From assembly GCA_036389275.1 (NCBI GenBank), contig DASVQE010000052.1, positions 33,680 through 97,679 of the forward strand: a stretch of 64,000 nucleotides of DNA, given 5' to 3'. The translations under genes were made by a program, and so were the position numbers. The notes below the pieces were generated by a model. The model did not search any database and was not told the origin of the DNA. It worked only from the letters and a program-made list of their open reading frames with translations. Positions 15,261 to 64,000 of the stretch are shown here, one piece after another. Each line of letters starts with the position of its first letter. Positions within the stretch are counted from its first letter, which is position 1. Origin of the DNA: Thermoanaerobaculia bacterium. GTDB taxonomy: Bacteria; Acidobacteriota; Thermoanaerobaculia; Gp7-AA8.

Positions 15261-18200
15261 ATGATCGTTACGTGGCCGGTCCGCTTCAGAAAGACACATT
15301 TGTTCCTGCTGCTCGTGCTGCTGGCGCTCTGGCCGGCGGCCGCGCGCGCGCAATCGTCGGACATCGCCACCGATGAGCTGCGCATCTCCGGCAGCGGCCT
15401 GACGCTCGACGACGTGGCGAAAGTCGCGTCGGTGAACATCCCCACGACGATCCAGACGCGCTTCGCCGGCTTGATCAACGACCAGGCGCCGGAAGTGCGC
15501 GACCTCAAGGCGGTCGGCGAGCTCACCGGCCCTTCGCTCACCACGCCGCTCCGGCTCGAAACCGAGCCGGGGCACGCCTTCCAGATCCCCGGCCTCGCGC
15601 TCGAGGGCGACTACCTCCTGCAGAACGTCCGGCTCATGCGCGGCGACACGTTCGTGCAGGCGTCGGCGAAACCGAGCGCGCTGATCAAGGTCACGACCAT
15701 CCTCGTCGCGGACGTCAAGATCACGCAGCTCACGCCCGAGCAGATCCGCGCGCGCGGCATCGTCATCGACGCCACGCACTTTGACGTCTACCAATACACG
15801 CTGACCTTCTACATCGAAGGGAAGCCGGTCGAGATCCCGTTCCCGGTGATCATCGACAAGACCAGCGGCGAGATCACGCTGCTGAGCGGCCCCGATGGAT
15901 ATGGCCTGACGAATCCGATCCCGCGCGAGCTGCCGCGGTGGGAGCCGCCGTCGATCTATGCGATCGGCTGGAGCGAAGACGGCGGCGAGGACGAACCGGA
16001 GGAGAACGAAAAGGAGCCGAATGAGGATGGCCCGACCATTCCCGCGGTGATCGTCATCCCGAACAGCGTCGGCGTGCTGCATCAGTTCTTCGTCGTATCG
16101 CTGAGCGTGCGCAACAACGCGCCGGCGGGATCGGCGATCCGCCTCTCCGACATCACGGCCACGATGCTGCCGCCGCCGGAGCTGCGCGTGGCGAAGACGC
16201 AGCCGGCGGTGCCGTTCGGAAGGCCGATCTCGCTCACCGATCCGAACACCGGCGCGACGTTCCTGATCGCGCAGGCGGAGGCGAAGGCGGAGTGGACGCT
16301 GGAAGGCCTTCGCGCCGGCACGCATGTGTTCGAGCTCGACCTCGCGGCCACGTATCAGGAGTCGCCCGCGGCTCCGGCCATTCCGATGCGCGCGCACACC
16401 CGGCACGCCATCACCGTCCACGACAACCGCTTCAACATCACCTTCGCGCATCCGGAGACGGTGCGCAAAGGGATCGACTACTCGACGTGGTCGTTCGTCA
16501 CGAACATGTCGGGAGCGCTGCAGACGCTGCATCTGCGCAGCGACCTGCACGCCTGCGGCGGCACCGGCACAGTGGGCAACGTCTGCCGCGTCGACGATGC
16601 CTTCGCGAACGTGCCGTCGTGCGAGGCCGAGCCGGGCGCGCGGCTCTGCCTCGTCGACGCGGTGAACGGCGTCATGCAGCTCGTGCTCGATCCCGGCGAG
16701 ACGCGCGGCGTCGAGTTCAAGCTGCGCTCCGGCGTGACCGGCTCGGTCTACGCGACCTCCGGCTCGTTCGACGAGCCGCTCACCGGATCGGTGCAGCTCA
16801 CCATGGGCGTGAGCGAGAGCGGAGTGCCGCTCTCGCCGGCGGTGCTGCTCATGCCGCACTACGCGCGCTATCTCGATCCGTCGTTCGTTTCCGACAACCT
16901 GCAACTGCTCGGCCTCGGCTACAGCGTGGCCACCGCTCCGATCAACGAGTACAGCGCGCGGCTGCCGCGCATCATCCGCTCGGACGTCTTCACCCGCGCG
17001 GTCGACATCTCGCGCGCGGGACAGCGCCTCTACATCGGCGAAGAGAAGCGTGAGGCGTTCACGCATCTCGCCCTCGACCTCCTCGGCAACGGCGAGCTGA
17101 ATCAGCTCTCCGAATACGACGCCCTGCGGCGGCGCGAGTTGAGCGGCTACGTGGCCGGGAAAGCGCTCGCGGCGCAGCTCTCCGCGGCGGCGCTGCCGGA
17201 CGCGGCGTCGTTCGATCGCTTCCTCTCCGACTTCGGCACCACCACCGCGCATCGCGAGTCGTATCTCGCGGCGCTGGTCCATGGCGCGGCCGCGGCGGGC
17301 GAGCGTCCGTACGCGATCCACGTGAAGAACATCGCCACCGGCGCGGCGCTCGATCTGCCAAACGAGCTGGCCACGTTCTCGCGGCGCGGCACGCGCGACA
17401 TCCCGTTCGGCGATCTCTCCAGCCTCACCAGCGCGGACAAGACGCGCACCGGCGAGCTCGCGCTGGTGGGCGCGTGGAAGGGTCCGTACGAGCTGACGGT
17501 GAAAGCGGCCGCCGGCGCGTCGTTCTCACTCGACGTGCTCCTGCCGGCGAGCGTGCCGGCGAAGAAGCGCCTGGTGCGCTTCCAGATCGACGCGATGCCG
17601 GCCGGCGACCTGACGCTCGTGGTCGATCCCGCCGCGCCGGCGCTCACGCTCGCCGGCGGCGGCCGCACGTTCACGCCGGTCAGTGATCGCGAGCTCGACC
17701 CGGCGCCGCTGCGCATCATCGGCGCGCGGCAGGACCTTCACCTCGACATCACCGGCCACAAAGTCGCGCTGCTGTTCAACCGCCCGCCGGACGAATCGCG
17801 CCTGCCGAGCGTGCGCGATCTCTTCCAGACGAAGGTGCATTTCAGCCAGGGCTCGATCGCGTACGACGGCCCGCGCCCGATCGACGCCGCCACGTTCCAG
17901 GGCGACGGCCGCACGGTCTACATCACCCATTCGCATGCGCTGCACGTCAACGCCAGCTACACCATCACCCCGAAACCGTTCCGGGATCCGCTGACCGGTC
18001 AGGACGTCTCGCTGCCTGCATTGCCGGCGGCGATGGTCAACGACATTCCGGCGGCGATCATCTACGGCCAGGTGCTGCGCGGCGACAACCATCCCGTGCC
18101 CGGCGCGCAGGTCGCGCTCTCGACGCATGGCGACCAGGACCCCGACACGCAGGGCGACGAGACCATTCAATACGACGTCGCGTCCGATCCCGACGGCGCA

Positions 18201-21200: not shown

Positions 21201-24200
21201 CGCATCCTCGTGCGGCAGGCCGGCGGCAGCGAAGTCGCCAACGCGCACGTCCGTGTCTTTTCCACGGCCGGCGCGTTCGACGCGTACACCGACGCATCCG
21301 GCGTGGCGCTCGTGCCGGGCGTGCCGCTCGGCACCTTCACCGTCACCGCCGAAACGGTCGACGGCACGTTCAGCGTGCGCACCGGTGAGCAGGAGCTCAA
21401 GAGCCAGTCGGTGACGAAAGACCTCATCGTCACCCTCGGCGCGTTCGTCACGCTGACCGGACGGGTGATCAAGGAAGACGGCAGCGGTCCGGCCGTCGGC
21501 ACGCACGTGGTCGCGTCCTTCAACACCGATCGCGTCGATCTCATCACCGACGCGGAAGGCCGCTACCGCTTCGTCGGCGTGAAGGTCGACAGCGGACTGG
21601 TGACGCAGGTCCGGATCGAGTTCGTCGGCGAGGACGACGCCACTTCCGGCGGCGTGCTGACCGACACGCTCGCCACCGGCGACGCCGGCAAGGTGAAGGA
21701 CTACGGCGACTGGCGCCTCGACGCGACGGCGCCGCGCATCCTGTCCATCGATCCGGCCGACAACGCGCAGAACGTCTCGCCGGACGCGAAGATCAACATC
21801 GTCTTCAGCGAGAAGGTCCAGCAGGGCCTCTTCGAGATCTCCACGGCCGACAACGAGGCCGTGCAGTTCACGCAGACGAAGGTCGAGCAGAACGGCAAGG
21901 AGCTCTACGCGCTCACGCCGCTGCCGCCGAAAGACAATCCGCTGCCGCTGCGCAGCAACACGCTGTATCGCGTCGTCGTCAAACATTTCGCGGACTTTTC
22001 GGGACACGTGCTGGCGGACCGCGCCTTCAGCTTCGTCACGGCCGACTACATCGCGCCGAAGGTGGTGAAGGTCGCACCGGCGGTGACGCAGCCGGTGCAG
22101 CGATCCACGACCTTCGTGGTGACATTCAACAAAGCGATCTCGCGCGCCGCGCTCGAGTCGGGCGGCACGACCATCAAGCTCTATCGCACCGCTGGTCTCG
22201 CCGCCGACGCCGCCGTGCTCGGCGAAGTGACGGGCACGTGGTCGCTCGACACGCCGGGCACGGGGCTCTCCTTCGCGCCGGCCGACTTCCTGCTGGAGAA
22301 GTCGTTCTATCGCCTCGTGCTCAACGGCGTGCGCGACACGAACAACAACGTCTCCGAGCCGCTCCGCTTCGACTACCGCTCGTTCGACAAAGACGCGCCG
22401 TTCGTGGTCATCCCGTCGCCGGTTCCCGCCGGCTATCCGCTCGTGGCGGGCGTCGGCTACACGATCCATCCGGAGCTGCACGACGGCAGCGCGGCCGGCG
22501 CGCTGGCCGACGACGTGTCGCAGGTCGACTACTTCGTCACCGTCGACGGCGTGGCCAAGCCGCCCGTCTCCTTGCGCGTCGCGCCCTTCGACTACTACTT
22601 CGTGGCCGACCCGACGCTCACCAGCGGCACGCGCCGCATCACCATGCGCGCGCAGGCGACCGACGCCTCGCTGAACCTCGGCGAGATGAGCGCCGAGGTG
22701 AGCTGGGACGTGGTGCCGAACCAGGCGCCGAAGGCGCTCGGCCTCACGCTGGTCGAGCCCGATCGCGCGTTCGCGGGAAGCGACGTGAAGCTCCTGCCGT
22801 CGTTCACCGACGAAGGGACGTTCGTCTCGCTGCAGGCGCACGCCACGGCGCAGCGGAAAGACGGCACGACGTGGAGCGGCGATGCCGCGCCGGTCGAAGC
22901 GCGCCGCGACAAAGTCGATGCGGCGTGGACCTTCAAGCCGTCGTATCTGATCGTCTCGCTGCCGCGCGACGTGCAGGACGGCGCGGTGGTGAGCGTCACG
23001 CTCACCGCGACCGATGCCGCCGGAAAAACCGCGACGCTCAATCCGCCGTTCACGTTCACCGTCACCGCCGACACGGCACGTCCGACCATCCACGCGATGT
23101 CGCCGGCGTCCGACACCGAATTCCGGCGCGACGAGAAGTACACCATTCAGGCGCTGGTGAGCGACGGCGAGAGCGGCGTCGCCGAAGTGACGCTGAAGGC
23201 GGGCGACTTCTTCTCCGTGACCATGCATCCGGGTGAGGCGGGCGTGAGTGCCGGCTCGATTCCGGGGACGCTGAAGTTCGTCTCGCCGCAGATCACCGTC
23301 GTCGCGCCGAACGTCGACACGCGCGTGCCGATCGTGGCGACGGTGAAGGACGCGAACAACAACGTCACCACGCGCACCATCGAAGTGATCTACATCGGCG
23401 TGAATGATCCGTCCGCGCCGAAGGGCTCGTGGCAGTGTCCGGTGAACCGCGCCATCTGGCCGGCCGATCAGCCGTCGTTCGCGGCCACGCTCAGCGTGCA
23501 GGCCAGCGACGACATCGCCGTCACGAGCGTGCAGTTCGTCGTCCCCGGCCTGGCCGCGCCGGTGACCGCGACCGCGTCCGGGAACGGCTTGTATCAGGCC
23601 ACCGTCACGATGACGACGCCGAACGCGGCGTCGATGACGATCAAAGCGATCGTCAAGGACTCGGTCGAGTCGCACACGCTCGAGCTCCCGATCACCATCG
23701 ACCTCGTCCCGGTCGAGCGCGTCATCGACGGGCGCGTGCAGCCGGTCACCGCCGACAACCTCGCCGACTATCAGAACAGGAGCGTGATGGTGCGCGGCGC
23801 CGGCGCGGAGCTCGCGCTGCACGTGCCGGTCACGTTCGCAAACCTGCTCGTGCTCGAAGGCGCGCGCGTCTACAGCCTGCCGACGACGACTACGCTCGAG
23901 CGGAAGCTCACCATCGGCATCACCAACGCGATGTACGTCGACTGCGCCTCGAAGGTCGATCACGACAACGGCGGCTACCTCGGCGGCTGGCAGCACGAGA
24001 ACAACAGCAGCACGCGCAACGAGAGCGCGCGCGGCCGCACCGTCGGCAACGTCGCCGCCGGTGCGACGCCGCTGTCGTCGGCGAGCCACGGCGGCCGCGG
24101 CGGCGAGCGCTATCAGGGCGGCACGTCGAACGGAACCTACGGCTCGATCTTCACTCCGGCCGATCTCGGATCGGGCGGCGCCGGCGTTGCGGACCGCGAC

Positions 24201-42959: not shown

Positions 42960-43012
42960 GCGCGCGCGCTCACTGAGTCCGTTTTCGGTCCCGTAGTCGA
43001 AAGGAATATCGC

Positions 43013-55000: not shown

Positions 55001-58000
55001 TTCACCGTGCGCCTCACGTACGCGCCGAGCGGCGAGTCGCACCTCGTGCAGCGCGTCACCGTCGTCAATCCCGCACTCGACTTCCGCTGGCACGGCGATG
55101 CGTTCAAAGGGGAGACGCTCGACATCCCGAACGTGCTCGCGCGCCCCGAGGATCGGCTGACCATCCTGCGCAACCTCACGACGTACGGTGTGGTCACGCT
55201 GTTCGGTTACGGCGCCGCCGTGTACGACCTGAACGCGATGGAGACGAACGACTTCAAGCTCCGTTGCACCGGCACATTCCTCGGCCAGCACGGAACCGCC
55301 TGCGCGGCCGCGCTGACCCAGCGCGCGCTTCCCGAAAAGATCGTGAACACGACCGGGAGCAACGAGGGCTGCAACCTCGAGCACGACATGAGCGACGACC
55401 TCACGTACTCGCCGGAGATCTTCGGCATCGTGCGGTCGGTGCCGACCGCCAGCGGCGGCGTGAACGTCTCGCCCGACATTCACATTATCGGCGTGCGCAC
55501 CAAGAACGGTCTCATCGACGTCGTCTCCGCGCTTCCGTCGGAGGACGACGGCGGCCTCACCGACGGCTGCGAGAGCGGCGCGAACACCGTCCCGGTCGAA
55601 GATCATCCCGCGCTCTCCGCGATCATCCAGCGCGTGAGCACGACCCAACGCCAGACCGGCGGCGCGCTCTATCGCTGGGGCATCTCGTCCACCCAGAACG
55701 TGGCGGGCGTGCGCGGCTCAGCGCCGAACACCGACGTCCATCGCGACTATCTGCTCGTTGCCGCGAACAAGTGGGGCATCCTCGTCTTCGAGATCGGCGG
55801 CACTCCGCCGCCCGCCGGCCCCGGCTACGGCACCCTCGGTCTGGAGAGCCTGGTCGACGTGATCTGGATCGCCGCCGGCGCCGCCGCCGTCGCTCCGATC
55901 GAAGGCACGAACCTCGCCGCCGTCATCGATCTCAAAGGACGGCTGCTCATCCTCGATCTCGCCAACATCGACGAGCGCTGGGGCCCGGCCACCGCGGCGA
56001 ATCCGTCGCCGCTGCTGCCGCCCGGTCCGTTCAAGATCCCGACCGCGGCGATGAACGCCGCCGGCGGCGCCAGCGGAGAGATCGGCGTCGACGATCCGCG
56101 CGTCGTCTACAAGAGCGCGAACAAGTTCACCTCCGGCACGCTGCCGCCCATCGTCGATCCCGACACCGGCATCGCCTTCGGCGGCGACGTGCTCACGCAG
56201 AACATGCGCGTGCGCGCCGTGCTCGATCCGAAGATCGAGTTCCTGATCGATGCCGGCAACGGCCTCCAGCCGACCAACGGCATCACGCCGCTCGGCGTGG
56301 CCAAGCCGTCGAGCGCATCGACCACTCCTGCCGGCGCGCTCGGCGCGTTCCGCGTGCGCGTGACGCTGCCCGGCTCACTCGCCGAAGTGCTCGCCGATCA
56401 GAAGGTGCATCTCGCCGTCGAGAGCGAGCTCGTTCCGGGAGCGGTCACGCCGCAGTCGGCGCGTTCGCTGCCGCGCGCACATCTGCGCGTCAACGACCGC
56501 GAGGGAACCGTCGATCCGCGCAAGGTCACCGACTTCACGCTGCGTCGCGCCATCGCCTTCACGCCGTCGATGGAGAACACGTATCGTCACCAGCGCGGCT
56601 TCAACCGCCTGCTCTCGCCGTGGATCGTCGCTCTGGCCGATCCGCGCGCGAGCGAGCGCGTGACCGGCGACGCCGCCGCGAAGACCGCCGACGGCTGCCT
56701 CGAATGCGAGCGCCCGAGCGGCCTCAAAGGAAAGACCGAGGCCGACGGCGTGTACGAGCTGTACACCGCCGGCCGCTACATCAGCGCGCGCCTCGACAGC
56801 CATCAGCCCGGCGTGCTCGCCGTCGACGATCTCCCCGATTTCTACAAGTACCTCGCGGAGAAGTCGCGGCTCGACGTCCGCATCCCGACCACCATCGCCG
56901 ACACCGTGCGGCCGAAGGCGGCGCTCATTCCGCCGCAGCACGCGCCGCTCGCGCAGGGCACCATCGACGGCACCGTGTTCGTCCACTCGGGCGAGCTCGG
57001 CGTCGACGCGGCCGATCTCTACATCACCGGCCGCGGCCCGGCCGACCTGATGCTCACGCGCTCCTATCGCTCGCGGACCATCGGCGGCACGCCCATCGGC
57101 CTCGGATGGGACGCCTCGTTCCTCCGCCGCATCCGGCCGCTGCCCGACGGCAACGTCGAATACCGCGACGCATCGGGCGACATCTGGCTGTTCAAGAAAC
57201 CTGCGCAGGGACCGGGCGCCGCGCCGCCGGCAGCGCTGCAGGCTCTCGAGGCATCGGTCGGCGTGCGCTTCCGCTACACCGCTCCTCCCGGTCTCTACGT
57301 GAGCCTCATGCGCTCCGACGACGGCTGGACGATGCTCGACGACAAGTGGCGCATCACGCGCTTCGACAACTTCGGACGCATCACCGCCGAGACGGACGAG
57401 TTCTGGAAGGCTGCCGACGTCGGTGCCGGCGCGGCCAGCGGCAATCAGTTCCGCTATCTCTACGACATTGAAGGACGCCTCGCCCAGATCGTCGATCCGA
57501 TCGGCCGCATCACCACCATCCGCTATTGGGAGAAGAACCCCACCGGCGCGAACGTGAACTGCACGAACGTCGGCGCCAAGACCAATCCGTGCGCGTATCC
57601 CGGCCTGATGAAGGAGATCGTCGACTGGCGCCGCCGGTCGGTGCTCTTCGAGTACGACCACGTCGGCCGCCTCATCGCCGTGCAGCTCCCGAACGTGAAA
57701 GCGATCGACGGCGCGCCGTCGAGCTACGACTTCAGCACACCCGACAAGCGGCCGCGCATCCGCTATCAGTACGACAGCGCCACCGCGGCGTACCCCGGCG
57801 ACACCGCCTCGCCGCAGGAGTTCACCGACTTCATGCACTACGCGGCGAATCTCGCCGAGATCGTCGAGCCGGCGGACGAGTCGTCCGGCGACGCGCGCGT
57901 GAGGTTCGAGTTCTTCCGCACCACCGACGAGAAGCGCGACCGCCTGCACTTCGAGCGCTGGCCGTGCGGATCGCGCGCGCCCGGCTGCACGGAGACCGAA

Positions 58001-61000
58001 GCCGACTTCGCCTATCAGGGAAACATCCTCAGCATCAAAGACATGCTCGGACAGGTGTGGGAGTACGCGCTCACGCAGGACTCCGAGCAGCGGAAGCACA
58101 TCCAGAGCGTGACGGCGAAGGACGTCCCGACCTTCCACGTCTCCGCGAGCTCGACCAACATTCCGCTCGTCCTCACCGCCACCGGCGCGGATCTCGTCAC
58201 GAAGTACGAAAACTTCAGCGCCGACGGCATTCCGACGCGCACGACCTACCCGAGCGGCCGCGTCGTCGACCTGACCATCGCCGCGCCGCAGTCGAATCCC
58301 AACGCGCACTGCAAGCAGTTACAGAGCGTCAACGACAACGGCGGCGGCGCCTCACGCAACACCACCATCACCTACGAAACGCAGCAGACCGCGCTCTGCA
58401 CCGCCACGGCGTTGCAACGCGGCAACGACAAGCGCGAGACCGAGTCGCCGAGCCGCGATCGCGACAAGACCACCACCGTCGATGAGACCGCCGGCGTCTC
58501 CGTCGAAACGACGTACGACTCGTTCGGCCGCCCGACCATCGTCACCCGCAAGGGCAGCGGCACGGACTCGATGAAGACCGTCTACACGTACAAGCCGAAC
58601 AACAGCGGCGACCCGATCGCGTGGTCGCGTCTCGCCGACATCACCGGCGGCAACAACGACACCTACCAGAACTTCACGTACACCAGCGACAGCGTCGGCG
58701 GCGAGACCGTCACCGTCCACGACACGAAGCGCAAAACCACCACCACCACGCGCTACGACGCCTCGGGCCAGCCGATCTACCGCAAGCTCGACGACGACGA
58801 CTTCGGCATCCTCAGCGAAGAGAAGATGGCGTACGACGCCAGCGGCCGTCTGACGTGGACCAGCACCACCGCTCCCACCGGCACGTTCGATACGACCGTC
58901 AAATACGATCCGCTCGGTCGCGTCGACACGACCACCACCACGCGCAACAACGTGATGGGCGTCGACAAGGACCTCGAGGTGCGGCACACCTACGATCTCG
59001 CCGCGAAGATCGTCACGACCACCGATCCGGCCGGGCCGGGCGGCGCGCCGGCAGCGCAGCAGATCACCACGCTCGACGCCCTCGGCCGTCCGATTCGCAT
59101 CGAGCACCGCGCCTCGAGCCCGCCGCCGGGCGGCGGCGACACGCCGACCATCCTGCAACTGCTCGCGTACGACAAGCACGGCGCGGTGTCGTATCAATCC
59201 GACACGGTCCGCGACGCCTCGATCACTTCGCGCGATGGCCTCGGGCGTCCTGCGTTCACGCTGCGCCGCGACGGCCTCAGGACCACGTTCAGTTGGAGCG
59301 ATTGGGATCAGCCGCAGCAGACGACCGTCACGGCCGGCTCGGCCACGGTGTCGAGCACGCGGCAGTTCTTCACCGACGAGGGACAGCTCTACGCGACGAA
59401 CGAGAGCGTCGACACGCGCGTGCGGCGCACGCGCCGGACGTGGCTCGCCGGCGGCCAGCAGGTGCTCGACCGCACCGGCATCGGCTTCGGCCTCAACGAC
59501 GACACCGCACCCGGCGCGGCGCGCGGCACGCGCACCACCACCGATCTCGCCGGCCGCGTCACCGACGTGGTGACCGGCGGCCTCGGCGCCGGCGACACCG
59601 ACATCACCAAGATCTATCACCACACGAACTTCGCCGACTTCCGCGGCGACGTCGCCACGCTGGTGCACGAGATCGAGCCGATGCGCAACGTCACGATCGA
59701 TCACCGCCAGACGCTCGACGGACTCGATCGCGTCCGCAACGCGAAGATCAGCGACCACTACGAGACCACCACCACCTACGACGTCGCCGGCAATCTCGAG
59801 CTGGTGACGCCTTCCGGCGAAGGCGCGACGCGGATGTTCTCCGACAGCCGCGGACTGACCTATCGCACCGAGCGCCCCGACGCGCCGGACAACGTCGTGC
59901 TGCGCTTCTTCGACGAGCGCGGCGCGCTGCGCCGCATCACCGACGAGACCGGCGACATCACCAACTACATCACCGACGATCTCGGCCGCGTCGTGCGCGT
60001 CGACTATCCCGACACCACGCACGAAGAGACCCGCTACGAAAACAAGACCGGCCTGGTCACAGCTACGCGCGATCGCGCCGGGCAGTGGCTGTCGTACAAC
60101 TTCGACGACGGCGGCCGCGTCACCCACATCCGCCTCGGCGAAGATCCGAACAACGGCCCGGTCGTCACCGAGATCGAATACAACGACGCCAAACGGATCG
60201 CGCGCGTCGCGAACAAAAACGGCGCCGTCGAGTACGAAGCGTACGACGACCTCGGACGTCCGACGCTCACGCGCACGATCCGCTACGCGAACGAGTCGGG
60301 CCTCAAGCCGGCGCCCGACCGCATCGTCTCCGACTCGCACACGCAGACGCACGCCTGGTCGGTGTTCGGCTCGGAGCGCTCCTCCTGGAGTCTGCCCGTC
60401 GCCGGCACCAGCCCTGCCGCGCAGAACGGTACGAGCTGGCGCACCGCCGTGATCGAAACGCGCGACGCCGGCGGCAACCTGGTGCTGCAGCAGGCCAACG
60501 GCGCCGACATCGCCACCGCAATCCCCGGCGGCATCGGTCGTGTGCTCGAGCACGATCGCGCGCTCTCGACCAGCGGCATGCTGGCGACGTCTTACGGATT
60601 CACCGACGCGTCCGGAAGCGGCCCCGATCCGGGCGATCCGGCGATCGCGCCGAGCGGCATGCTCTCGAGGTCGGAGACGAAAGTCGGCAGCCGCGTCCTC
60701 GCCGGTACGCAGACGTTCCCCGACCGGTCGCTCCGCGTGCGCACCGCGCACGATCTCGCCCTCGGCCGCTCGTCGAAATGGGTGTACGACGGGCGCGGGC
60801 GGCTCACCAGCAGCAAGCTCCTCGTGCCGCAGGAAGATCTGCTCACGACTCCCGCGATCGCCGATGTGCTGAGCGGATCGGAGTTCCGCGAGGAGCGTCA
60901 AACCGAAACGATCTTCGGACCGCTCGAGCACGGACGCCTCGGCCTCGCGCGCTCGCTCGAAGTCGAGCCGGCGTCGTGGCGCGCCGACGAAGATCCGGGA

Positions 61001-63190
61001 CACCAGATCGACAACCGCACCATGAAACTCGACGGTGCGGACGTGCTGCAGCGCGACTACGCGTTCGCCGACGGACGCCGCTCCACCGACGGCGTCTGGC
61101 AGAGCACCTACGACGAGTTCGGCCGCCTCACGCGCATCGAAAGCAGCTCGCGCCGCATCGAGTACGTCTACGGTCCGACCGACCGCATCATCGGCCGCAA
61201 CGCCTACATGGTGGGCGGCAGCGGCTGGACGCTCGAGACGCGCAGCACCGTTCTCGCTGCGGACGCTCTGCCGGCGCAGACGACGTTCGTGTGGGACCCG
61301 ATCGTCGACCGCCTCGTCGCGATTTACGACGCCGGTGCTTCGACCGGCGCGACCGCCGCGCCCGATGCCGGACTGCTGCGCCAATACGTGCACGGCGACG
61401 CCGGCTACGACGATCCGGGCGAAGTGTTCGTCGCCTCCACACCCGGCGGCACCGCCACGCGTTACCTCCCGGTCTTCGACGAAGCTGGTACGGGCTCGCT
61501 GCAGGCCGTGGTGGACGGAGACGGCCACGTCGTCGAGCGCGTGCTCTTCGGCGACTCGTACGGCGCCGCGCCGCGCTTCCTGCACGGCCCGGTGGTCGAG
61601 AAGGTGACGTTCACCGCCAAGCGCGATCCGGCCGGCACGATCACGGAGGCCGAGGTTCGCGTCCGCTTCAGCGAGAACGTCGCCTCGAGCGGCCTCGCCA
61701 ACGCCATGCGCCTCCGCGCGCTCGATGCAGACGGCGAGCAGGTCGCGCTGCACGGCGGCGCGCCGGAGTTCCCCGACCCGACGAGCGACGATCACCACGA
61801 GCTCCGCTGGCGCCTCACGCCGGGCGACTGGTCCGCCCTCGTCAACGCCGCCGGCGCCGAGTCGATCGAAGTCGCCGTCTCCTCATCCCTCCGCACCGAC
61901 GCCTGGGGCAACACCCCCGTCCAGGAAGTCCCCGACTGGGCCCACACCCTCTTCGGCGCCACCAGCACCACCGCCTACCCGGTCATCGTCACCGCCCTGA
62001 TCACCACCCTCACCACCCCCCCAGCCGCCGGAATGCCGCAGCCGCCCCTGTACGAGATCAAGTCCCTCTACATGGCGGCCTCCCCAACCTCCCGCACCCA
62101 CACCCTAACCGGCTTCAAAGCCGCCCCCTTCACCGACCCCGCCACCGGCCTCGCCTTCTTCCGAGCCCGCTGGTACGACCCCGAAACCGGCACCTGGCTC
62201 ACGCCGGATCCGGTCGGTTACGACGATTCCTCGAACCTCTACGCGTTCGCAGGTGGCGATCCGGTGAATAGCTCGGACCCGACGGGATTGTGCCTCGGTT
62301 TCGGACAAGGCACTTGCGCCGATTGGGCGAACGCAGGGAAGAAGAAGCTCGATGCAGTTCGACTCTTCGTCGACAAGCACACCGGCTCGACAATTTTCGA
62401 CGTCGGAGTCAACGCGCAGCTTGGCTTCGCACTCGATGTCGTCGATACCTTCGTGTTGGATCCGTTACGTTTTGGCGAAGCAACGGGTACGGCGATCGGC
62501 AGCGGCGCCGGCGCGGTGTCAACCACGCTTGCTGTCGTTCAGGACGTCGGGCGCGGCGCTGCACTCGCGGCAGGTGCCGGGACAGTGATCAGGGCCGCAG
62601 CTCGATTCACTGTCGCGGTGCGTTCGGCCGTAGCGTTCGACTCGCTTGGAGAAGCTGCAGCTCGCGGCTTGGACGAGGGAGCAGCGATCGCGGCGCGCGA
62701 GCTTGCGCCGGACATTTCCGCCGCGGCAGTTCAAGAACAGCGCGTTCTGGCCAATATCGCGGAGAGTGCCGAGGCGCGAGCCGCGTCAAACTTCCCGACC
62801 ACCGCAGCGGCCGCAGATGAGCTGACCGGCATTACCAACCGCGCGGCAAAGATCACCGACCGTCTGATCAAAAACAACAGTACATATTGGGCGAGGGTGT
62901 ACAACAATCCTGCGCTGCGCGGCCAGCGATTTGCGAGAGCCTTTGCGCGAAATCCGAATTTTGCACGTAGTCTTATCCGTGGAAACATCATGGATGACGT
63001 CGTCAAGCAGCTCGCTCAGAAATCGGGCAAGCTGCCGTTCATGCGGATCACGCCTCGTGGCGCCCGCGGAGCAGATTTCATCAACCTTTTCCTCAACAGC
63101 GCGTGGGACGTGACGACAGCCGGATCGTGGGCGCGACATGTGAGTCGTTACGCGAAGGAAATGTATCGACTTTATCCGTTAATCTATTAG
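43013..63190 (+). CDS. giant secreted RHS/YD-repeat polymorphic toxin (6725 aa) with a ~4600-aa N-terminal LamG/Ig/SbsA stalk and a C-terminal toxin domain of unknown family
   Basis: TTG start at 43013 preceded by AAGGAA at 43001-43006. Signal peptide MRPGSSFAFSAVAAVAAALVLSFAAPLAAQTP. Contains a LamG-like domain, 18 tandem Ig-like domains, SbsA Ig-like and CarboxypepD_reg-like domains and a few LVIVD-like repeats. The RHS region begins at IGLGWDASFLRR with many YD repeats (YLYDIEGRLAQIVDPIGRITTIRY, FEYDHVGRLIAVQLPN, YTYDLAAKIVTTTDPAG, YEAYDDLGRPTLTRTIRY). The RHS core ends SDPTGL. Confidence 0.9.
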   Translation: MRPGSSFAFSAVAAVAAALVLSFAAPLAAQTPITAYSDDFQSYGTQSNPPGWVDTSIGASAPEAAGLYKTWPDPTQGNSGPNVVYGTKQSSGQPEGNNPRVGTFSTYTAKSFAGAGRFEYSGRFLRTSADTRVGITFFSSYPQADRYYLIGLWSHPQQTTKLTMQLFGFGGPAPQQTTVSDFTPEVGKWYRFRVRVDDVEGKTVIRGRFWLDTNAEPQTWHIDAVDASAGRLTSGRIGIWSAVRGDAYVDDISAQSPVDHAPPTISFFVGDTPLTDGMKFHTAVTPRIVVTDDLSEVRWTAQLDGGNFVTPVTGQGDHILRVDAKDAVGNTASKSVTFYIDTIPPRLTIVKPADGSITSSDVNISLHVDDASLPATFAATLDGATWDVTRPVSAEGQHQLTVTAFDAVGLASAPQTATFIIDKTAPAYELFANAKAFPADGYVFGEDVTITIVPKDLTLDKVSLLLDGAPYTAGTPVTDERKHTLGGTVTDKVGHVTTIAERTFWIDKTAPTVELLGNGTAIKQYYDIASLVAELKISDVTATRVTATLNGAPANLPVTLTGEATYVVAGSVTDAANHVTPFGPTTFAIDRSAPQITLSANGAAFPASGHIFLGDVALAVDVKDLTLADYSVTHDGAAVELPLTLTDEFRDHVIKVVATDKLNHSASVGPLTFTIDKFAPVVAVTNNGAELTDGRYFNRPVRPVINVTDITATTVTATLNGQRFESGSEITADGAYTLAGNVADGAGRSTPIGPIAFTIDTTAPTGVFVEGDNKPFPDGKTLNVEAIRASVKITDANPLPAKILLDGAEYAEGTPITLEDAHTLTATLVDKAGNSGSVPPVSFRIDRTRPVLTLFANGDVFPAKAFDTRFDVAVTYKVEDKSAVTIAATLDGANVTLPVTISDERVHTLVATATDAAGNVGTAGPFTFTIEKTPPNVEVLLNDAPAGLNAVFKVDVRVKLQISAGLTSRSASILLNGQSYVEGTAITAPGVYVVTGTVTTASGVTVPIPETTFTIDKTAPDVTLKNRDRDFEANGFHYNADVVPNVTCHDDLTRCTTELKVDGNDWKNGDPITAEGEHAVVAAATDTAGNRKELPAVTFVLDKTSPAITITAPAEGQTVSAPRVVVSGTSDDAVSIDVNGTLATIDAAAKTFTTTPVALLEGENEIVVVALDQAGNASTRTVHVVADTRAPLLAVQSPAPNACLNAQQLVVRGSVSDPWIQTVKVTVDADVVANALDAQKQTFTATFANIAEGPHRISVEATDTLGHRTVAALQVMIDRTAPLIDIFEGAAPFTARLVNHPVALSIRARDGDPNVAVAARLGATPYVSGTPIAAPGAYHLDVLAEDCAGNQSTQPLDFEIDLLAPAFDTLVPPNGATVGALPQSITGHVSRDAVRVEIEGTAIAAAPSADGNFVLALGSIAREGANQFVLRATDAAGNVAQVPYAFTVHSAAPTIQIYESGKPLSDGALFNRPVTPEVRVSDPTAQVTVLIGGQTWDQKPLTADGTYTISVTVRDELQRTAEASRTFTIDRTPPVVKITKPLAGTVSSDVVTIEGTAGDAVSVDVHGAIVAPGAGGAFRREGVRLEVGQNDLVVSATDRAGNTAADSVLVTWLGSGPAIVITSPRDASLTNRPRIDVTGHVLGALGGGEVVVGSKTATLDATGVFRVTDYQLAGGENVITARVPNGASASVTITADFKAPALSVLASGQPLANDAHFPGEVSISVNASDDRNLALTRVTIDGAEPPSLPAKVSSTGGHVLNARARDEAGNETVVERTFFIGSGGGGSGCSIEEVDPADGATVAPSANATTASVRITGRASGATAVTINGAAADVADGTFAKTVELPSEGANAIGIRCTDASGALSEPKNLVYYRVSGNPSVRITAPAEGGTTGDKSVVVTGEVGADVVSIDVNGIAGTIRDGSPRTFRVENVTLTDGTNILVAHGRNNAYRVGTHSVRVLSLQTAPQIRITSPEANSVAGGGKTTVGGTYSNLLPQTLAIAGGTNAPAADVVALSDTTGTFVFRGVGLAAGARTLTITGRNAAGVAATASLVVNSDPAAASIEIAAPSDNAYVPASEPVTVTGAYAGASGTARVEINGVAATVDPTASTYAGSAQHTGAPLTPVVARLIDANGSGPAASIMVRKLAGPLRVRSTFPADGAEGVDPGVLLLIDFSAPLDRATLSAIQLRSGSTPVDGTLRVDDSVVIFTPSTLLAPGTSYTVTIPATLKDVAGNAIDKASSFSFTTTVSAPSTPPQLDPIAITGCPATVSITGSAPPFARLRLEVGTIALSGQADASGRFTMAFPLSGRSGYQSGHLTIVGSDGSRSPEAPVSFRMDCAAPSVVGASYDRNANVLTIAFSKPVAAPTLVVGSSIVLTTSDNNSIGGTVALSGAIATVTPASDLRDKSFTLEVQTSVTDTAGNHLGSPFPQTFSLDGGDAPLPGDGSGFITGEVYDATSGRPLRGATVSVEVPRSAFARVPSVTSHAHLTTSGDVEMSKETDPRGRYTLPLPEGAHTIKAGSPQHTTVWRQIVVPAGAGVVPIDIRLTRRGERKSAATLPLTLQDGGGALTVTAPVKLTVTGGVASQAQVALTSVGAQSLAGLLPLGFSPIASAEVAVFGADGAASFDAQVNGELEFTLPSAAISAAHQTLSLVRYDSERDEWRTLIAVMAPAAGDAWRAPITSAGAYGVVYRDQASTLRQPPAPAAGATLQPATETCATSATPCVLVRKEFDIEPPVVPPSGRAVAKLQIAGEDAATFPSGTAVQAYVNEVLTLSSGDTVVDPPFTTDVLLYRTLDGKVGIGEFLIEPSEQARREVLETGVDQVKILQYPGRLDRGSLIGSEGGRVPGDSVTNVEIPAGATSEQLRATVATLKPENLGVAIAGFDVVGGFDLTLTRVATPPQTDADGDGVPDPAPALQLSRAARATINVDTAKLASPDAQLILVEVVNQSAWGAFYRLAVPMTRLDTPANGVTLVRYTSQSVNPASLAVDGIVREGRFLLLAAKAPIAFASGALRSTATGPYLPDMRVNSVMAGGAAYGVSDVTRASGVFALPIAAAPAPSFSITPRHARFGVGTAFTAAAPAAGETVAIGDWLFVVQPLRLTNVTPADGEIVPVAPITIKADFDLPIDTLSLQNAITVATTDGAIPLGGRIERDAADDHRVVFTSTGTVSASTTYRVTIQPTVRATNGAVLGQVHTFLVRTEGLPRTGEIHPERIRITLPDAQGHSRIFGDAKAIPAGFQVVAQRPDKGFRSVYDATAGANGDFSFVVGDRNDSDRLDLGDVVEVQILNLAFNVVATVQLTPFVTEDGKGFVAAANRDTTFVSTQGVAVTVAAGTFDKATLVTTDLNDSKAAFAAVPNFDQELHWVKTLDLHFDGTAKQRIEVSIPRPANLPLDGHDYLIGLLGQSSRGPRIAIEALLHPEGDKLTTALPPESSGANLQTKAAAMSGSGAAAAQFCMPGVFGAGSNAIFEMGNIGAEAVGWGFIAPIQQYMEVFNDMFQATYLPSLAYQTAKCRAIPVVKGKPFHLIGVDPDTGSQIFNTPYSAIDDINSIVAIDNPFPDTTGPFPIFGAPFRVERLEAPAPADNDGNGSIDPGEFKGRGFVVTRTESGTLTVTNDSNAAAQDVLPENTTVRLYNATRSILSTAATVGGGGSFTITSTASEGDLLFLYIGGRDVAPDATMNIVFSEPIAVGTIPTGADDPTRNQIINTYLHGVIKLEQVFDTGAVDISSNAVFRADSGNRRVLIDLPATFVRDGRYRITALASLTDPKNNRLAERRDKNGTVIGTPAADITFDFKVRPGPTSDHAFTLQPTATQTGGSLKDLARFGNLVFVAALDGGLLAYDISEPSMSNGTLPIAVVPTNWANSGVQVSDFWSVAADHHGRIYGGGFQASFSVVRGYRVEDFLAARDGQLNCPGGPHTNCISHGSAIVGWRPGVGVGMPLNAGWMVTNQPSAYPRKIKLLEQDDEQSATLDELKSNTGDGVEILDEVSAGNGYHRFTVRLTYAPSGESHLVQRVTVVNPALDFRWHGDAFKGETLDIPNVLARPEDRLTILRNLTTYGVVTLFGYGAAVYDLNAMETNDFKLRCTGTFLGQHGTACAAALTQRALPEKIVNTTGSNEGCNLEHDMSDDLTYSPEIFGIVRSVPTASGGVNVSPDIHIIGVRTKNGLIDVVSALPSEDDGGLTDGCESGANTVPVEDHPALSAIIQRVSTTQRQTGGALYRWGISSTQNVAGVRGSAPNTDVHRDYLLVAANKWGILVFEIGGTPPPAGPGYGTLGLESLVDVIWIAAGAAAVAPIEGTNLAAVIDLKGRLLILDLANIDERWGPATAANPSPLLPPGPFKIPTAAMNAAGGASGEIGVDDPRVVYKSANKFTSGTLPPIVDPDTGIAFGGDVLTQNMRVRAVLDPKIEFLIDAGNGLQPTNGITPLGVAKPSSASTTPAGALGAFRVRVTLPGSLAEVLADQKVHLAVESELVPGAVTPQSARSLPRAHLRVNDREGTVDPRKVTDFTLRRAIAFTPSMENTYRHQRGFNRLLSPWIVALADPRASERVTGDAAAKTADGCLECERPSGLKGKTEADGVYELYTAGRYISARLDSHQPGVLAVDDLPDFYKYLAEKSRLDVRIPTTIADTVRPKAALIPPQHAPLAQGTIDGTVFVHSGELGVDAADLYITGRGPADLMLTRSYRSRTIGGTPIGLGWDASFLRRIRPLPDGNVEYRDASGDIWLFKKPAQGPGAAPPAALQALEASVGVRFRYTAPPGLYVSLMRSDDGWTMLDDKWRITRFDNFGRITAETDEFWKAADVGAGAASGNQFRYLYDIEGRLAQIVDPIGRITTIRYWEKNPTGANVNCTNVGAKTNPCAYPGLMKEIVDWRRRSVLFEYDHVGRLIAVQLPNVKAIDGAPSSYDFSTPDKRPRIRYQYDSATAAYPGDTASPQEFTDFMHYAANLAEIVEPADESSGDARVRFEFFRTTDEKRDRLHFERWPCGSRAPGCTETEADFAYQGNILSIKDMLGQVWEYALTQDSEQRKHIQSVTAKDVPTFHVSASSTNIPLVLTATGADLVTKYENFSADGIPTRTTYPSGRVVDLTIAAPQSNPNAHCKQLQSVNDNGGGASRNTTITYETQQTALCTATALQRGNDKRETESPSRDRDKTTTVDETAGVSVETTYDSFGRPTIVTRKGSGTDSMKTVYTYKPNNSGDPIAWSRLADITGGNNDTYQNFTYTSDSVGGETVTVHDTKRKTTTTTRYDASGQPIYRKLDDDDFGILSEEKMAYDASGRLTWTSTTAPTGTFDTTVKYDPLGRVDTTTTTRNNVMGVDKDLEVRHTYDLAAKIVTTTDPAGPGGAPAAQQITTLDALGRPIRIEHRASSPPPGGGDTPTILQLLAYDKHGAVSYQSDTVRDASITSRDGLGRPAFTLRRDGLRTTFSWSDWDQPQQTTVTAGSATVSSTRQFFTDEGQLYATNESVDTRVRRTRRTWLAGGQQVLDRTGIGFGLNDDTAPGAARGTRTTTDLAGRVTDVVTGGLGAGDTDITKIYHHTNFADFRGDVATLVHEIEPMRNVTIDHRQTLDGLDRVRNAKISDHYETTTTYDVAGNLELVTPSGEGATRMFSDSRGLTYRTERPDAPDNVVLRFFDERGALRRITDETGDITNYITDDLGRVVRVDYPDTTHEETRYENKTGLVTATRDRAGQWLSYNFDDGGRVTHIRLGEDPNNGPVVTEIEYNDAKRIARVANKNGAVEYEAYDDLGRPTLTRTIRYANESGLKPAPDRIVSDSHTQTHAWSVFGSERSSWSLPVAGTSPAAQNGTSWRTAVIETRDAGGNLVLQQANGADIATAIPGGIGRVLEHDRALSTSGMLATSYGFTDASGSGPDPGDPAIAPSGMLSRSETKVGSRVLAGTQTFPDRSLRVRTAHDLALGRSSKWVYDGRGRLTSSKLLVPQEDLLTTPAIADVLSGSEFREERQTETIFGPLEHGRLGLARSLEVEPASWRADEDPGHQIDNRTMKLDGADVLQRDYAFADGRRSTDGVWQSTYDEFGRLTRIESSSRRIEYVYGPTDRIIGRNAYMVGGSGWTLETRSTVLAADALPAQTTFVWDPIVDRLVAIYDAGASTGATAAPDAGLLRQYVHGDAGYDDPGEVFVASTPGGTATRYLPVFDEAGTGSLQAVVDGDGHVVERVLFGDSYGAAPRFLHGPVVEKVTFTAKRDPAGTITEAEVRVRFSENVASSGLANAMRLRALDADGEQVALHGGAPEFPDPTSDDHHELRWRLTPGDWSALVNAAGAESIEVAVSSSLRTDAWGNTPVQEVPDWAHTLFGATSTTAYPVIVTALITTLTTPPAAGMPQPPLYEIKSLYMAASPTSRTHTLTGFKAAPFTDPATGLAFFRARWYDPETGTWLTPDPVGYDDSSNLYAFAGGDPVNSSDPTGLCLGFGQGTCADWANAGKKKLDAVRLFVDKHTGSTIFDVGVNAQLGFALDVVDTFVLDPLRFGEATGTAIGSGAGAVSTTLAVVQDVGRGAALAAGAGTVIRAAARFTVAVRSAVAFDSLGEAAARGLDEGAAIAARELAPDISAAAVQEQRVLANIAESAEARAASNFPTTAAAADELTGITNRAAKITDRLIKNNSTYWARVYNNPALRGQRFARAFARNPNFARSLIRGNIMDDVVKQLAQKSGKLPFMRITPRGARGADFINLFLNSAWDVTTAGSWARHVSRYAKEMYRLYPLIY
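43100..43800 (+). other. N-terminal LamG/concanavalin-like jelly-roll domain (DUF1080-like)
   Basis: FQSYGTQSNPPGWVD...GKWYRFRVRVDDVEGKTVIRGRFWLDTNAEPQTWHIDAVDASAGRLTSGRIGIWSAVRGDAYVDDIS. The terminal G.IG(I/L)....G...(F/V)D.(I/V) pattern is characteristic of this lectin-like fold. Confidence 0.5.
43790..48350 (+). repeat. 18 tandem ~85-aa Ig-like domains (about 255-bp period)
   Basis: Linker motif (T/A)F.ID(K/R)T(A/P)P recurs at about 44030, 44270, 44520, 44770, 45030, 45280, 45540, 45795, 46050, 46305, 46560, 46835, 47085, 47345, 47595, 47850, 48095 and 48340. Each unit also carries a T.TD.AGN.S/T motif. Confidence 0.8.
49450..54400 (+). other. region with at least four SbsA-type Ig-like domains (about 49450-49750, 50025-50310, 52300-52620, 54040-54400), a CarboxypepD_reg-like domain (about 50340-50600) and unassigned sequence
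   Basis: First SbsA-type example: LRVRSTFPADGAEGVDPGVLLLIDFSAPLDRATLSAIQLRSGSTPVDGTLRVDDSVVIFTPSTLLAPGTSYTVTIPATLKDVAGNAIDKASSFSFTT. CarboxypepD_reg-like example: GFITGEVYDATSGRPLRGATVSVEVPRS. LVIVD-like examples at about 54460-54540 (GNLVFVAALDGGLLAYDISEPS) and 55750 (GILVFEIGG). Confidence 0.55.
57100..61800 (+). other. RHS/YD-repeat shell region of the 6725-aa toxin
   Basis: Begins with the RHS start motif G.GW (IGLGWDASFLRRIRPLPDGNVEYRDASGDIWLF) and has dense YD repeats to about 61700. Confidence 0.85.
61990..62290 (+). other. RHS repeat-associated core with canonical DPxGL autoproteolysis motif
   Basis: FRARWYDPETGTWLTPDPVGYDDSSNLYAFAGGDPVNSSDPTGL. The DPTGL codons lie at about 62276-62290. 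Confidence 0.8.
62291..63187 (+). other. C-terminal polymorphic toxin domain (~299 aa), family not recognisable
   Basis: CLGFGQGTCADWANAGKKKLDAVRLFVDKHTGSTIFDVGVNAQLGF...NRAAKITDRLIKNNSTYWARVYNNPALRGQRFARAFARNPNFARSLIRGNIMDDVVKQLAQKSGKLPFMRITPRGARGADFINLFLNSAWDVTTAGSWARHVSRYAKEMYRLYPLIY. Lower GC than the host background. Confidence 0.5.
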
Positions 63191-63192
63191 CC

Positions 63193-64000
63193 ATGCCGGA
63201 GAAGCAGAAGGCGGTTGCGAGGATTTTGGCCGCGCAAACAGCGCAGGAAATGCGAGAGATTGCAGAGCGGTACGACATGATCGCGGGCGGGAAGATCGAC
63301 CTTCGCGATACCAGGTGCCGATTCAATCACGCTGAGATTGATCTTAAGGAATTCCTGCTCACCGGCTGTGATCTGTCGGGGTCGACTCTGACGAACTGCA
63401 TGGGAGAGGGCGTCAGCTTCGACGGGTGCAGGCTGAAGCAGGTTCGCATCACGGCCGAGAAAGGCAGGAAGGTGTCGTTTCAGGAAGCTTCGTTCAATGA
63501 AGCTTTTTTGGAGGACGTCACAATCGGTCCTCGCACACTCGATCTCTCTCGGACTATGTACCGGAAGGCGCGTCTGCGAAACGTCACCTTCACAATGGGA
63601 AAGCTTTTCAATGCGGATTTCACCGGCGCGCTCTTCGAGGATGTGTTTTTTCGAAGCGCTGAATTGAAGAGCGCAAGCTTCCGAGGGGCGAGTCTTACGA
63701 GAGTCTCGTTTGAAAAGGCAACGCTCGAGGACGCTGATTTCTCCCAGGCGGAGTTTCATCAAATGGAGCACTGGGGAGAGCCCGATTTTTCCGGCGCTAA
63801 AATCAGCGATGATCTGCGGTATAGGTACGGGATTGTCCGCGATCCGTCCTCAAAGATTGTTGCGCTCATCAATAGCGGCAGGTTCAATCAAGACGAAGCC
63901 GCTGTACTGAGCGCCTTTCTCGAGCGCAACAGAGACTTTCTCTCGAATCCCGAAGTGATGCTGATCGGGTCCGAGTACGATATCGACGCTGGCCTGTTCG
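63193..64000 (+). CDS. pentapeptide-repeat protein, candidate immunity protein (at least 269 aa; runs off the 3' end of the window)
   Basis: Own translation from ATG 63193, 2 nt after the toxin TAG, open to the window end: MPEKQKAVARILAAQTAQEMREIAERYDMIAGGKIDLRDTRCRFNHAEIDLKEFLLTGCDLSGSTLTNCMGEGVSFDGCRLKQVRITAEKGRKVSFQEASFNEAFLEDVTIGPRTLDLSRTMYRKARLRNVTFTMGKLFNADFTGALFEDVFFRSAELKSASFRGASLTRVSFEKATLEDADFSQAEFHQME... Tandem A(D/N)(L/F)xx pentapeptides. GC about 50-55%, well below background. Not in the supplied ORF track because there is no stop in the window. Confidence 0.75.
   Translation, partial: MPEKQKAVARILAAQTAQEMREIAERYDMIAGGKIDLRDTRCRFNHAEIDLKEFLLTGCDLSGSTLTNCMGEGVSFDGCRLKQVRITAEKGRKVSFQEASFNEAFLEDVTIGPRTLDLSRTMYRKARLRNVTFTMGKLFNADFTGALFEDVFFRSAELKSASFRGASLTRVSFEKATLEDADFSQAEFHQMEHWGEPDFSGAKISDDLRYRYGIVRDPSSKIVALINSGRFNQDEAAVLSAFLERNRDFLSNPEVMLIGSEYDIDAGLF

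Follow-up and report, generated by a model that had tools for sequence, protein, structure and literature searches.

Two giant genes, here called A and B, lie back to back in a 64,000-nt stretch of DNA from a Thermoanaerobaculia bacterium of the Acidobacteriota (GCA_036389275.1, contig DASVQE010000052.1, positions 33,680 to 97,679 of the forward strand). This stretch is referred to below as the window. The two giants belong to a cassette that runs from a small secreted protein gene, p274, through A and B to a candidate immunity gene. The cassette is lineage-specific and multi-copy in Thermoanaerobaculia (Acidobacteria), and its p274-A-B order and tight spacing are conserved. An earlier note made from the sequence alone had described A and B as a two-gene unit. 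The coordinates it gave for two co-oriented giant open reading frames (ORFs) with a 53-nt gap are exactly right and the unit is tight and co-oriented, but it comprises at least four genes, since p274 precedes A in six of six loci. The genes and the spacer between the giants are as follows (all on the + strand).

14422..15246, + strand: p274, a small secreted protein and the cassette's first gene, ending 14 nt before A
15261..42959, + strand: gene A, ATG start, 9232 aa, an intact ORF for a giant modular Sec-type protein
42960..43012, + strand: A-B spacer, 53 nt, carrying a ribosome-binding site (AAAGGA) and, at the A stop codon, a small GC hairpin
43013..63190, + strand: gene B, TTG start, 6725 aa, an intact ORF for a giant Sec-type RHS/YD polymorphic toxin
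63193..64000, + strand: pentapeptide-repeat gene, the immunity candidate, beginning 2 nt after the B stop and with its 3' end beyond the window

Because the window DNA is 69% GC and carries long shadow ORFs on other frames, the coding signal of A and B was checked. GC at codon positions 1, 2 and 3 is 0.64, 0.52 and 0.92 in A and 0.65, 0.52 and 0.89 in B, and third-position GC (GC3) stays at 0.89-0.93 in each 3-kb slice of both genes. This evenness indicates that each is coding over its full length in the stated frame. Neither gene has an internal stop, and Pfam domains are spread over the whole length of A and of B. The best DNA repeats inside them are only 68-72% identical, and since they are not near-identical an assembly artefact through collapse or expansion of repeats is unlikely. 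The 9232-aa product of A is also present in a public JGI gene call, whose source contig is Ga0334925_000017 (151.6 kb, JGI metagenome 3300034173).

These results bear directly on the idea that one or both ORFs are chimeric, repeat-expanded or mere shadow ORFs of GC-rich DNA. The short-read metagenome source, the 69% GC content and the spurious long ORFs seen on other frames all lend themselves to that idea. The strong and uniform codon-position signature, the whole-length domain content and the internal repeats of at most 72% identity speak against it, as do collinear homologues of A and B on independent contigs and in long-read assemblies. It is left with next to no probability and is effectively refuted, and the GC3 uniformity, lack of internal stops and repeat divergence bear out the earlier note's treatment of both ORFs as genuine.

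The earlier note had also read Sec signal peptides on both proteins, and by inspection both N-termini fit such a leader, that of A ending in ...LWPAAARA before QSS and that of B in ...SFAAPLAA before QTP. A leader of B's Sec kind is present in B homologues at 17 loci. No real sequence similarity between A and B was found by BLASTP, which returned compositional alignments only. The possibility that they are diverged duplicates or one split gene was rejected because of this lack of similarity and because B is equipped with a conserved signal peptide and a ribosome-binding site of its own. The domain vocabulary that the two were said to share survives in part: CarboxypepD_reg and Big_5 score above their Pfam cut-offs in both, but the Ig units and LVIVD repeats of A are not really found in B.

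A perfect 14-nt palindrome, GAGCGCGCGCGCTC, at 42957..42976 overlaps the A stop codon and could form a small hairpin with no T-run, and the spacer as a whole folds no more stably than shuffled sequences. The palindrome is not a canonical terminator. No promoter-like or terminator-like sites were found on the + strand of the spacer, with scans for sigma-70 promoters and terminators that are weak evidence for Acidobacteria.

Conservation of the cassette in Thermoanaerobaculia

Searches with the N-terminal region of A returned 36 homologues at 26-52% identity, and those with the first 1000 aa of B returned about 22 clear homologues. Almost all come from metagenome-assembled genomes (MAGs) of Thermoanaerobaculia or Acidobacteriota, and almost all are truncated by contig ends. 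A scan of 185,579 species-representative genomes with an alignment of the B head then yielded 27 loci in 21 species-level MAGs, with up to four loci per MAG and every one in Thermoanaerobaculia or Acidobacteriota. In 24 of 26 related loci whose upstream flank is visible, the B-type RHS gene comes directly after a giant A-type gene in the same orientation. Homologues of the two genes clearly co-occur, whereas the earlier note had named their never co-occurring as a result that would speak against the pair.

The flanks themselves show how closely the two genes are joined. Of the loci from the genome scan, 23 have an upstream flank of 4 kb or more. In 19 of these a single uninterrupted + strand ORF fills the flank and stops just before the B homologue, and with a 10-kb flank such ORFs are longer than 3,200 aa. 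All but one of the 19 (18/19) have a tblastn match to A, usually in the glycine-rich and Ig modules described below. Of the scanned loci, L033 has an A-like upstream gene that is frameshifted in a long-read assembly. The upstream gene could also be read on three contigs with B-head homologues. At L004 and L005 it runs collinear with A all the way to the final residue, and B then follows after 22 and 2 nt, respectively, while at L006 it is A-like, with glycine-rich modules and a discoidin domain. Across homologous loci, the gap from A stop to B start ranges from -4 to about 100 nt. The pair evidently tolerates insertion, since at L026 (7281-9996) an insertion sequence (IS)-type transposase ORF and a small toxin-antitoxin-like pair, both recognized by eye, lie between the A-type and B-type genes.

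The front of the cassette is equally regular. A p274 homologue of 265-279 aa and 32-42% identity lies directly 5' of A in six of six loci, which are all the loci where an A N-terminus was seen (the window, L002, L003, L034, L035 and L036). Genes further upstream vary between loci, and this places the start of the cassette at p274. The p274 protein had no match in Pfam, NCBIfam or PDB profile searches.

Multiplication of the cassette can be seen on one contig (DATAJY010000015.1), which carries the B heads of L008 at about 373.4 kb and of L019 at about 414.4 kb. Both are encoded on one strand with 41 kb between them, and an A-type gene comes before each. This arrangement implies that A-B cassettes stand in tandem. 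Two more copies lie on other contigs of this MAG.

In both giants the N-terminal parts are conserved and the C-terminal ends vary. The most conserved part of the whole cassette is the B head, with a median identity of 62% in 30 loci, compared with 32-46% for every other B region and 30-41% within A. In A, conservation lies in the N-terminal region, in the arrays of CarboxypepD_reg and Big_5 domains and in the glycine-rich modules. Nearly all A-type partners carry a glycine-rich module, and this is the part of A most often recognized upstream of B homologues. The C-termini of A-type proteins before B consist of LVIVD propellers or F5/8-type-C discoidin domains, with neither in L025. Because these ends switch between the two kinds, LVIVD is a variable tip and not a hallmark of the A family. 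The earlier note had described the partner of the toxin as a giant LVIVD-propeller scaffold, an emphasis that is overstated, since about half of the A-type partners carry a discoidin C-terminus instead.

Architecture of the two giants and the toxin tip

Gene A encodes a string of domains in which Pfam recognizes CarboxypepD_reg, Big_5, Big_6, Big_7 and LVIVD, the last at 99.8 bits and Big_6 at 62 bits. Its parts are listed here.

15351..18050, + strand: A N-terminal region (aa 31-930), conserved and family-defining, with beta-sandwich domains and a helical bundle of ~130 aa
18063..23810, + strand: array of CarboxypepD_reg/transthyretin-like, Big_5 (SbsA-type) and Big_7 Ig domains (aa ~935-2850), from Pfam and our own hidden Markov model (HMM)
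23832..28547, + strand: three glycine-rich modules of ~350 aa with Ig domains between them and an invariant SHGG motif
23832..24992, + strand: glycine-rich module 1 (aa 2858-3244)
26424..27395, + strand: glycine-rich module 2 (aa 3722-4045)
27522..28547, + strand: glycine-rich module 3 (aa 4088-4429)
28614..42956, + strand: LVIVD/Ig array (aa 4452-9232), ten LVIVD beta-propellers of ~300 aa alternating with 85-aa Ig units

The N-terminal region (aa 31-930) had no match in Pfam or NCBIfam. It appears to resemble S-layer proteins, and A was compared with S-layer/SbsC-type surface proteins, which have a glycan-anchoring domain at the N-terminus and Ig-like assembly domains after it. A Foldseek search with the model of this region returned only generic macroglobulin/Ig strings at a TM score of ~0.1. 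An alpha-2-macroglobulin identity was considered and rejected because the CxEQ thioester motif is absent.

The glycine-rich modules score 430-540 bits each with an HMM built from them and carry the invariant signature SHGG...TYGS...GGGxVxI...GGS...GGG. No relative of this module was found in Pfam, NCBIfam or PDB profile searches, and to the eye its sequence looks beta-helix-like. Our HMM for the 85-aa Ig unit recognizes 19 copies in A, 17 of them in the LVIVD array and including one run of seven.

Gene B has a different plan, and Pfam assigns to it Big_13, Glucodextran_B, Big_5, Big_3_3, CarboxypepD_reg, DUF6531 and RHS_repeat. It can be divided as follows.

43106..43822, + strand: B head (aa 32-270), a ConA-like lectin/glucanase jelly-roll domain by AlphaFold2 (AF2) model and Foldseek
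43859..50650, + strand: Ig stalk (aa 283-2546), with ~18 Ig units (Big_13, Big_3, Glucodextran_B), three Big_5 domains and one CarboxypepD_reg (transthyretin-like) domain
50690..56980, + strand: middle and pre-RHS region (aa 2560-4656), ~2,100 aa with Big_5 domains, mostly unannotated
56981..62290, + strand: DUF6531 plug, RHS/YD shell and core end (aa 4657-6426), closing with ...RARWYDPETGTWLTPDP...PVNSSDPTGL
62291..63187, + strand: two-module toxin tip (aa 6427-6725, 299 aa), GC3 0.65

The core of the AF2 model of the B head has a predicted local distance difference test (pLDDT) score above 80. Its top Foldseek matches are legume lectins, ERGIC-53 and a DUF1080-type protein, at a probability of 1.0 and TM scores of 0.45-0.5. 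The head had no match in Pfam or NCBIfam, and its profile gave chance-level matches only in the PDB search. More generally, eight of nine tested segments had no match in NCBIfam. The single CarboxypepD_reg domain that ends the stalk (aa 2448-2546) scores 36.1 bits against a cut-off of 32.3.

The middle and pre-RHS part of B is collinear in 13-27 loci at 32-44% identity, and the pre-RHS region opens with about two LVIVD-like blades. The LVIVD likeness is slight: Pfam gives 16.2 bits, below the cut-off of 20.2, and hhalign of the pre-RHS region with the propeller profile of A reaches 88% probability over only 81 columns. Similarly, the HMM for the 85-aa Ig unit of A made two marginal matches only in B, and our HMM for the propellers of A found next to nothing there. 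Residues 3780-4660 had no match in the PDB profile search.

It is the C-terminal third that firmly places B in the RHS/YD polymorphic toxin class. DUF6531 (PF20148) is found at aa ~4657-4724 with 26.4 bits (cut-off 24.1), and Pfam RHS_repeat at aa ~5270-5670 with 48.6, 54.7 and 46.1 bits (cut-off 22); there was no match to PF03527. The core-end motif PxxxxDPxGL takes the form PVNSSDPTGL at aa 6417-6426. In the PDB, TccC3, YenC2 and type VI secretion system (T6SS) Rhs proteins match this part of B with their own core ends, at E values of 4e-8 to 1e-3. From its sequence, the motif is predicted to be the canonical autoproteolytic (aspartyl autoprotease) site that separates the toxin. With its RHS repeats, DUF6531 and core-end motif, B is the RHS toxin that the earlier note had called it, and its tip differs between loci.

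The tip of B had no family in Pfam or NCBIfam and has 91 relatives among 1.8 billion representatives. Its two modules, residues 1-140 and 150-299, are found apart from each other at the C-terminal ends of other proteins, and RHS repeats are present in six of seven carriers tested. A metagenome scan with the B core end gave 15 loci, and the core-end motif was located in eight of them. The tips that follow the DPxG motif at these eight loci form five unrelated groups, none of which is related to the tip in the window, so that L037, L038/L039, L040/L041/L049, L047 and the window all differ. One metagenome tip group is followed by an SMI1/KNR4-like gene, as judged by eye from the ORF translation.

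Immediately downstream, where the earlier note had placed a cognate immunity gene, there is indeed a candidate 2 nt 3' of the B stop. It matches Pfam Pentapeptide_4 with 67 bits (cut-off 38) and Pentapeptide with 61 bits, and it falls below the cut-offs of all Qnr/MfpA/HetL-like models of NCBIfam. GC3 is 0.91 in the B core and drops beyond it, to 0.65 for the tip and 0.67 for the immunity candidate, whereas host genes range from 0.81 to 0.88. This drop fits horizontally exchanged toxin-immunity modules. The pentapeptide-repeat proteins Qnr and MfpA have a DNA-mimic fold, and as speculation the immunity candidate hints at a DNA-directed toxin.

A JGI protein of 1241 aa, P0064, joins the signal peptide and first ~95 aa of the B lectin head directly to the C-terminal part of the RHS shell. 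It appears to derive from a B-type gene through recombination or the loss of a large internal segment. Its tip differs from that of B, and its precomputed Pfam list includes PF14449. The RHS cores of B and P0064 both contain an apparently Ig-like insertion of ~170 aa (61500..62100 in the window, B aa ~6190-6350), which has the conserved LFGDSYGAAPRFLHG segment before it and the closing RARWYDP core-end motif after it and is unusual for RHS cores.

Upstream of the cassette, the window holds a second Sec-type RHS toxin and a regulatory gene pair.

553..9498, + strand: 2981-aa Sec-type RHS toxin with DUF6531, RHS repeats, RHS core and an Ntox16 tip
9483..9971, + strand: DUF6714-like immunity candidate that follows the 2981-aa toxin
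10610..12432, 5' of the cassette: LytS-type histidine kinase and LytTR response regulator

The 2981-aa toxin has three N-terminal repeats of ~100 aa and, in its RHS region, five or six unannotated repeats of ~168 aa (WFDR at aa 1973, 2142, 2309, 2478 and 2647). Its GC3 of 0.72 is well under that of host genes, which suggests a recent acquisition. The LytS/LytTR pair was considered as part of the cassette and rejected because other loci have different upstream genes, such as a sigma-54 activator and chemotaxis genes.

Likeness to described systems

No published description of the A-B cassette was found in full-text searches pairing Thermoanaerobaculia with Rhs, polymorphic toxins or giant proteins, or LVIVD with Rhs, and two giant-protein surveys make no mention of it. 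The cassette is apparently undescribed. The statement in the earlier note that no such system is known therefore holds for the pairing itself in the literature searched, but a close conceptual relative exists in the teneurin-like proteins (TLPs) and Sec-dependent RHS toxins (PMC13018210). Bacterial teneurin-like and other Sec-dependent RHS toxins are the closest described relatives, and none has a giant partner like A.

Several TLP features have a counterpart in B. TLPs carry a Sec signal and, at the N-terminus, adhesion domains of the Ig type (Raoelijaona et al. 2026, PMC13018210; Jackson et al. 2018, PMC5851990), followed by a transthyretin-like (CarboxypepD_reg) domain and a propeller-type region and plug ahead of the YD/RHS shell, and they close with an autoproteolytic PxxxxDPxG core end, a hypervariable C-terminal toxin and an adjacent immunity gene (PMC13018210, PMC5851990). 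Their delivery machinery is not obvious and their delivery route is unknown (PMC13018210). B likewise has a Sec-type leader (by inspection), Ig domains (Big_13, Big_3, Big_5), a transthyretin-like domain, a propeller-like region, DUF6531 before the shell, PxxxxDPxGL, a variable tip and an adjacent immunity candidate.

B also departs from TLPs in several respects. Its propeller-like blades, which come before DUF6531, are LVIVD-like, and B aa 3780-4700 gave no match at E<=1 to NHL, the six-bladed beta-propeller of the TLP superfold. The TLP shell is sealed by an FN-plug, and DUF6531 lies ahead of the shell in B. A lectin-fold head opens B, and the protein is about 2-3 times longer than TLPs, which have no described conserved giant partner or p274-like gene. 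A phmmer search of B aa 3700-6725 against all PDB chains left the teneurin and BiTLP chains unmatched and found only Rhs and Tc core ends. The acidobacterial TLPs come from Holophagae, not Thermoanaerobaculia (PMC13018210). B is architecturally analogous to TLPs rather than an established member of that group.

Other RHS systems share the cocoon of B and differ in how it is mounted. The T6SS Rhs effectors RhsA and Tse5 (PDB 7q97, 8cp6) have an RHS cocoon, a core-end motif, an encapsulated polymorphic toxin and an immunity gene, whereas B has a Sec leader and a predicted extracellular stalk of ~4,600 aa, and its N-terminus is neither of the PAAR nor of the VgrG-binding type. Pfam likewise recognized no PAAR or VgrG domain in A, B or the neighbouring genes. 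The Tc (ABC) toxins, composed of TcA and TcB-TcC (PDB 4o9x, 6h6e, 4igl), also set an RHS cocoon beside a much larger partner gene, and the core end of B is similar to those of TccC3 and YenC2. In contrast to the Tc proteins, A and B carry Sec leaders, and A is made of Ig, transthyretin-like and propeller beads. No TcA, VRP1 or SpvB Pfam domain was found in p274, A or B, and the neighbouring genes gave no TcA or SpvB match either.

The CdiB/CdiA contact-dependent inhibition (CDI) systems of the type V secretion system (T5SS) offer another parallel to the logic proposed for the cassette, with a long surface filament, a receptor-binding part and a C-terminal polymorphic toxin with its immunity gene. 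Unlike in CDI, the binding and toxin functions would be split over two proteins in the A-B cassette. Neither a TPS domain nor FHA repeats nor an Omp85-type CdiB was found in A, B or their neighbour genes in the window. WapA of Bacillus subtilis, an RHS protein exported by Sec and associated with the surface, carries its toxin at the C-terminus and is paired with an immunity gene. It mediates contact-dependent inhibition and needs no dedicated injection machine. It is about 2,300 aa long and is anchored by cell-wall-binding repeats in a monoderm host. B resembles it in its Sec-type leader, RHS shell, C-terminal toxin and adjacent immunity candidate, but WapA has no giant partner gene.

Proposed function, alternatives and significance

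On balance, we consider it somewhat probable that p274, the surface protein A, the RHS toxin B and the immunity protein form a contact-dependent antagonism cassette that works without T6SS, T5SS or Tc components. The mechanism we infer from the domain content is one of a surface-anchored adhesin and a toxin fibre. A and B would be exported by Sec, and both giants would be held at the producer envelope via their conserved N-terminal modules. These modules may bind an envelope glycan, each other or both, possibly helped by p274: the lectin head of B would bind a glycan, and the S-layer-like region of A together with p274 might bind the envelope or each other. The strings of Ig, transthyretin-like and propeller domains would push the variable C-termini outward. 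There the tip of A would bind the target-cell surface and the RHS cocoon of B would bring the cleaved toxin to the target cell, while the pentapeptide-repeat protein would shield sibling cells. Adhesin and toxin would in this way be divided between two giant polypeptides. The earlier note had suggested that A serves as stalk, receptor binder or partner, any of which may apply.

Several points weigh against this proposal. The 9,232-aa A protein would have to pass a diderm outer membrane, and no transporter gene was seen. The sequence appears to fit N-terminal anchoring and N-terminal target binding alike. The signal peptides of A and B were read by eye, and the mean pLDDT of the B head model is only 66. 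At L024 and L029, a B-type gene has no A-like gene within 4 kb upstream. Conversely, L036 (596-5962) encodes a complete short A of 1,511 aa, consisting of the N-terminal region and CarboxypepD_reg, with its p274 homologue (p27x) present and no B. This last locus indicates that cassette parts can exist apart, as A and p27x alone.

Such loci are what would be expected if A and B were functionally independent neighbours, with A a general giant adhesin, S-layer-like or biofilm-matrix protein and B a stand-alone secreted RHS toxin, brought together by co-regulation or block duplication. The lack of sequence similarity between A and B agrees with this explanation, as does the second Sec-type RHS toxin of the window (553..9498), which has no giant partner. 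We nevertheless hold independence to be rather unlikely. Adjacency, order and gaps of at most about 100 nt are kept in 24 of 26 loci despite identities of 30-45% and multiplied cassettes, and block duplication alone would not keep the pairing in 21 species-level genomes.

Improbable, and clearly more so than independence, is a Tc-like logic in which B is a fused TcB-TcC-type cocoon and A a non-homologous TcA analogue that docks the cocoon and translocates the toxin across the membrane of the target. The large partner gene before the RHS cocoon mirrors the tcA-tcB-tcC order, the core end of B aligns with TccC3 and YenC2, and the pre-RHS region places propeller-like blades ahead of the shell. 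Yet A and B lack the TcA, VRP1 and SpvB domains, and in the model of the A N-terminus beta-sandwiches predominate, accompanied by a single small helical bundle and no pore-forming helical shell. Moreover, B has its own signal peptide and a stalk of ~4,600 aa before the cocoon.

The contact-dependent antagonism reading can be carried one step further, although only tentatively. It is possible that Sec-dependent RHS/teneurin-like toxins find in the A-family giants, together with p274, the partner for targeting or anchoring that has been missing. The cassette would then represent a new two-polypeptide contact-dependent killing system of Acidobacteria, with exchangeable binding tips and toxins and with co-assembly at the surface via the N-terminal modules.

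The delivery route is unknown for Sec-exported RHS/YD toxins that are neither fired by a T6SS nor docked on TcA (PMC13018210). Here an abundant, uncultured class of soil Acidobacteria keeps a Sec-type RHS toxin in strict linkage with another giant protein and with p274. The A-B cassette is therefore a concrete and testable candidate for partner-assisted delivery or display of Sec-dependent RHS toxins, and it may show how exported RHS toxins acquire a targeting or anchoring partner. It also brings to light modules without a family, namely p274, the A N-terminal region, the SHGG glycine-rich module, the lectin-fold head of B and the two-module toxin tip. Finally, it indicates that giant genes can be routine, multi-copy equipment in the Thermoanaerobaculia lineage.

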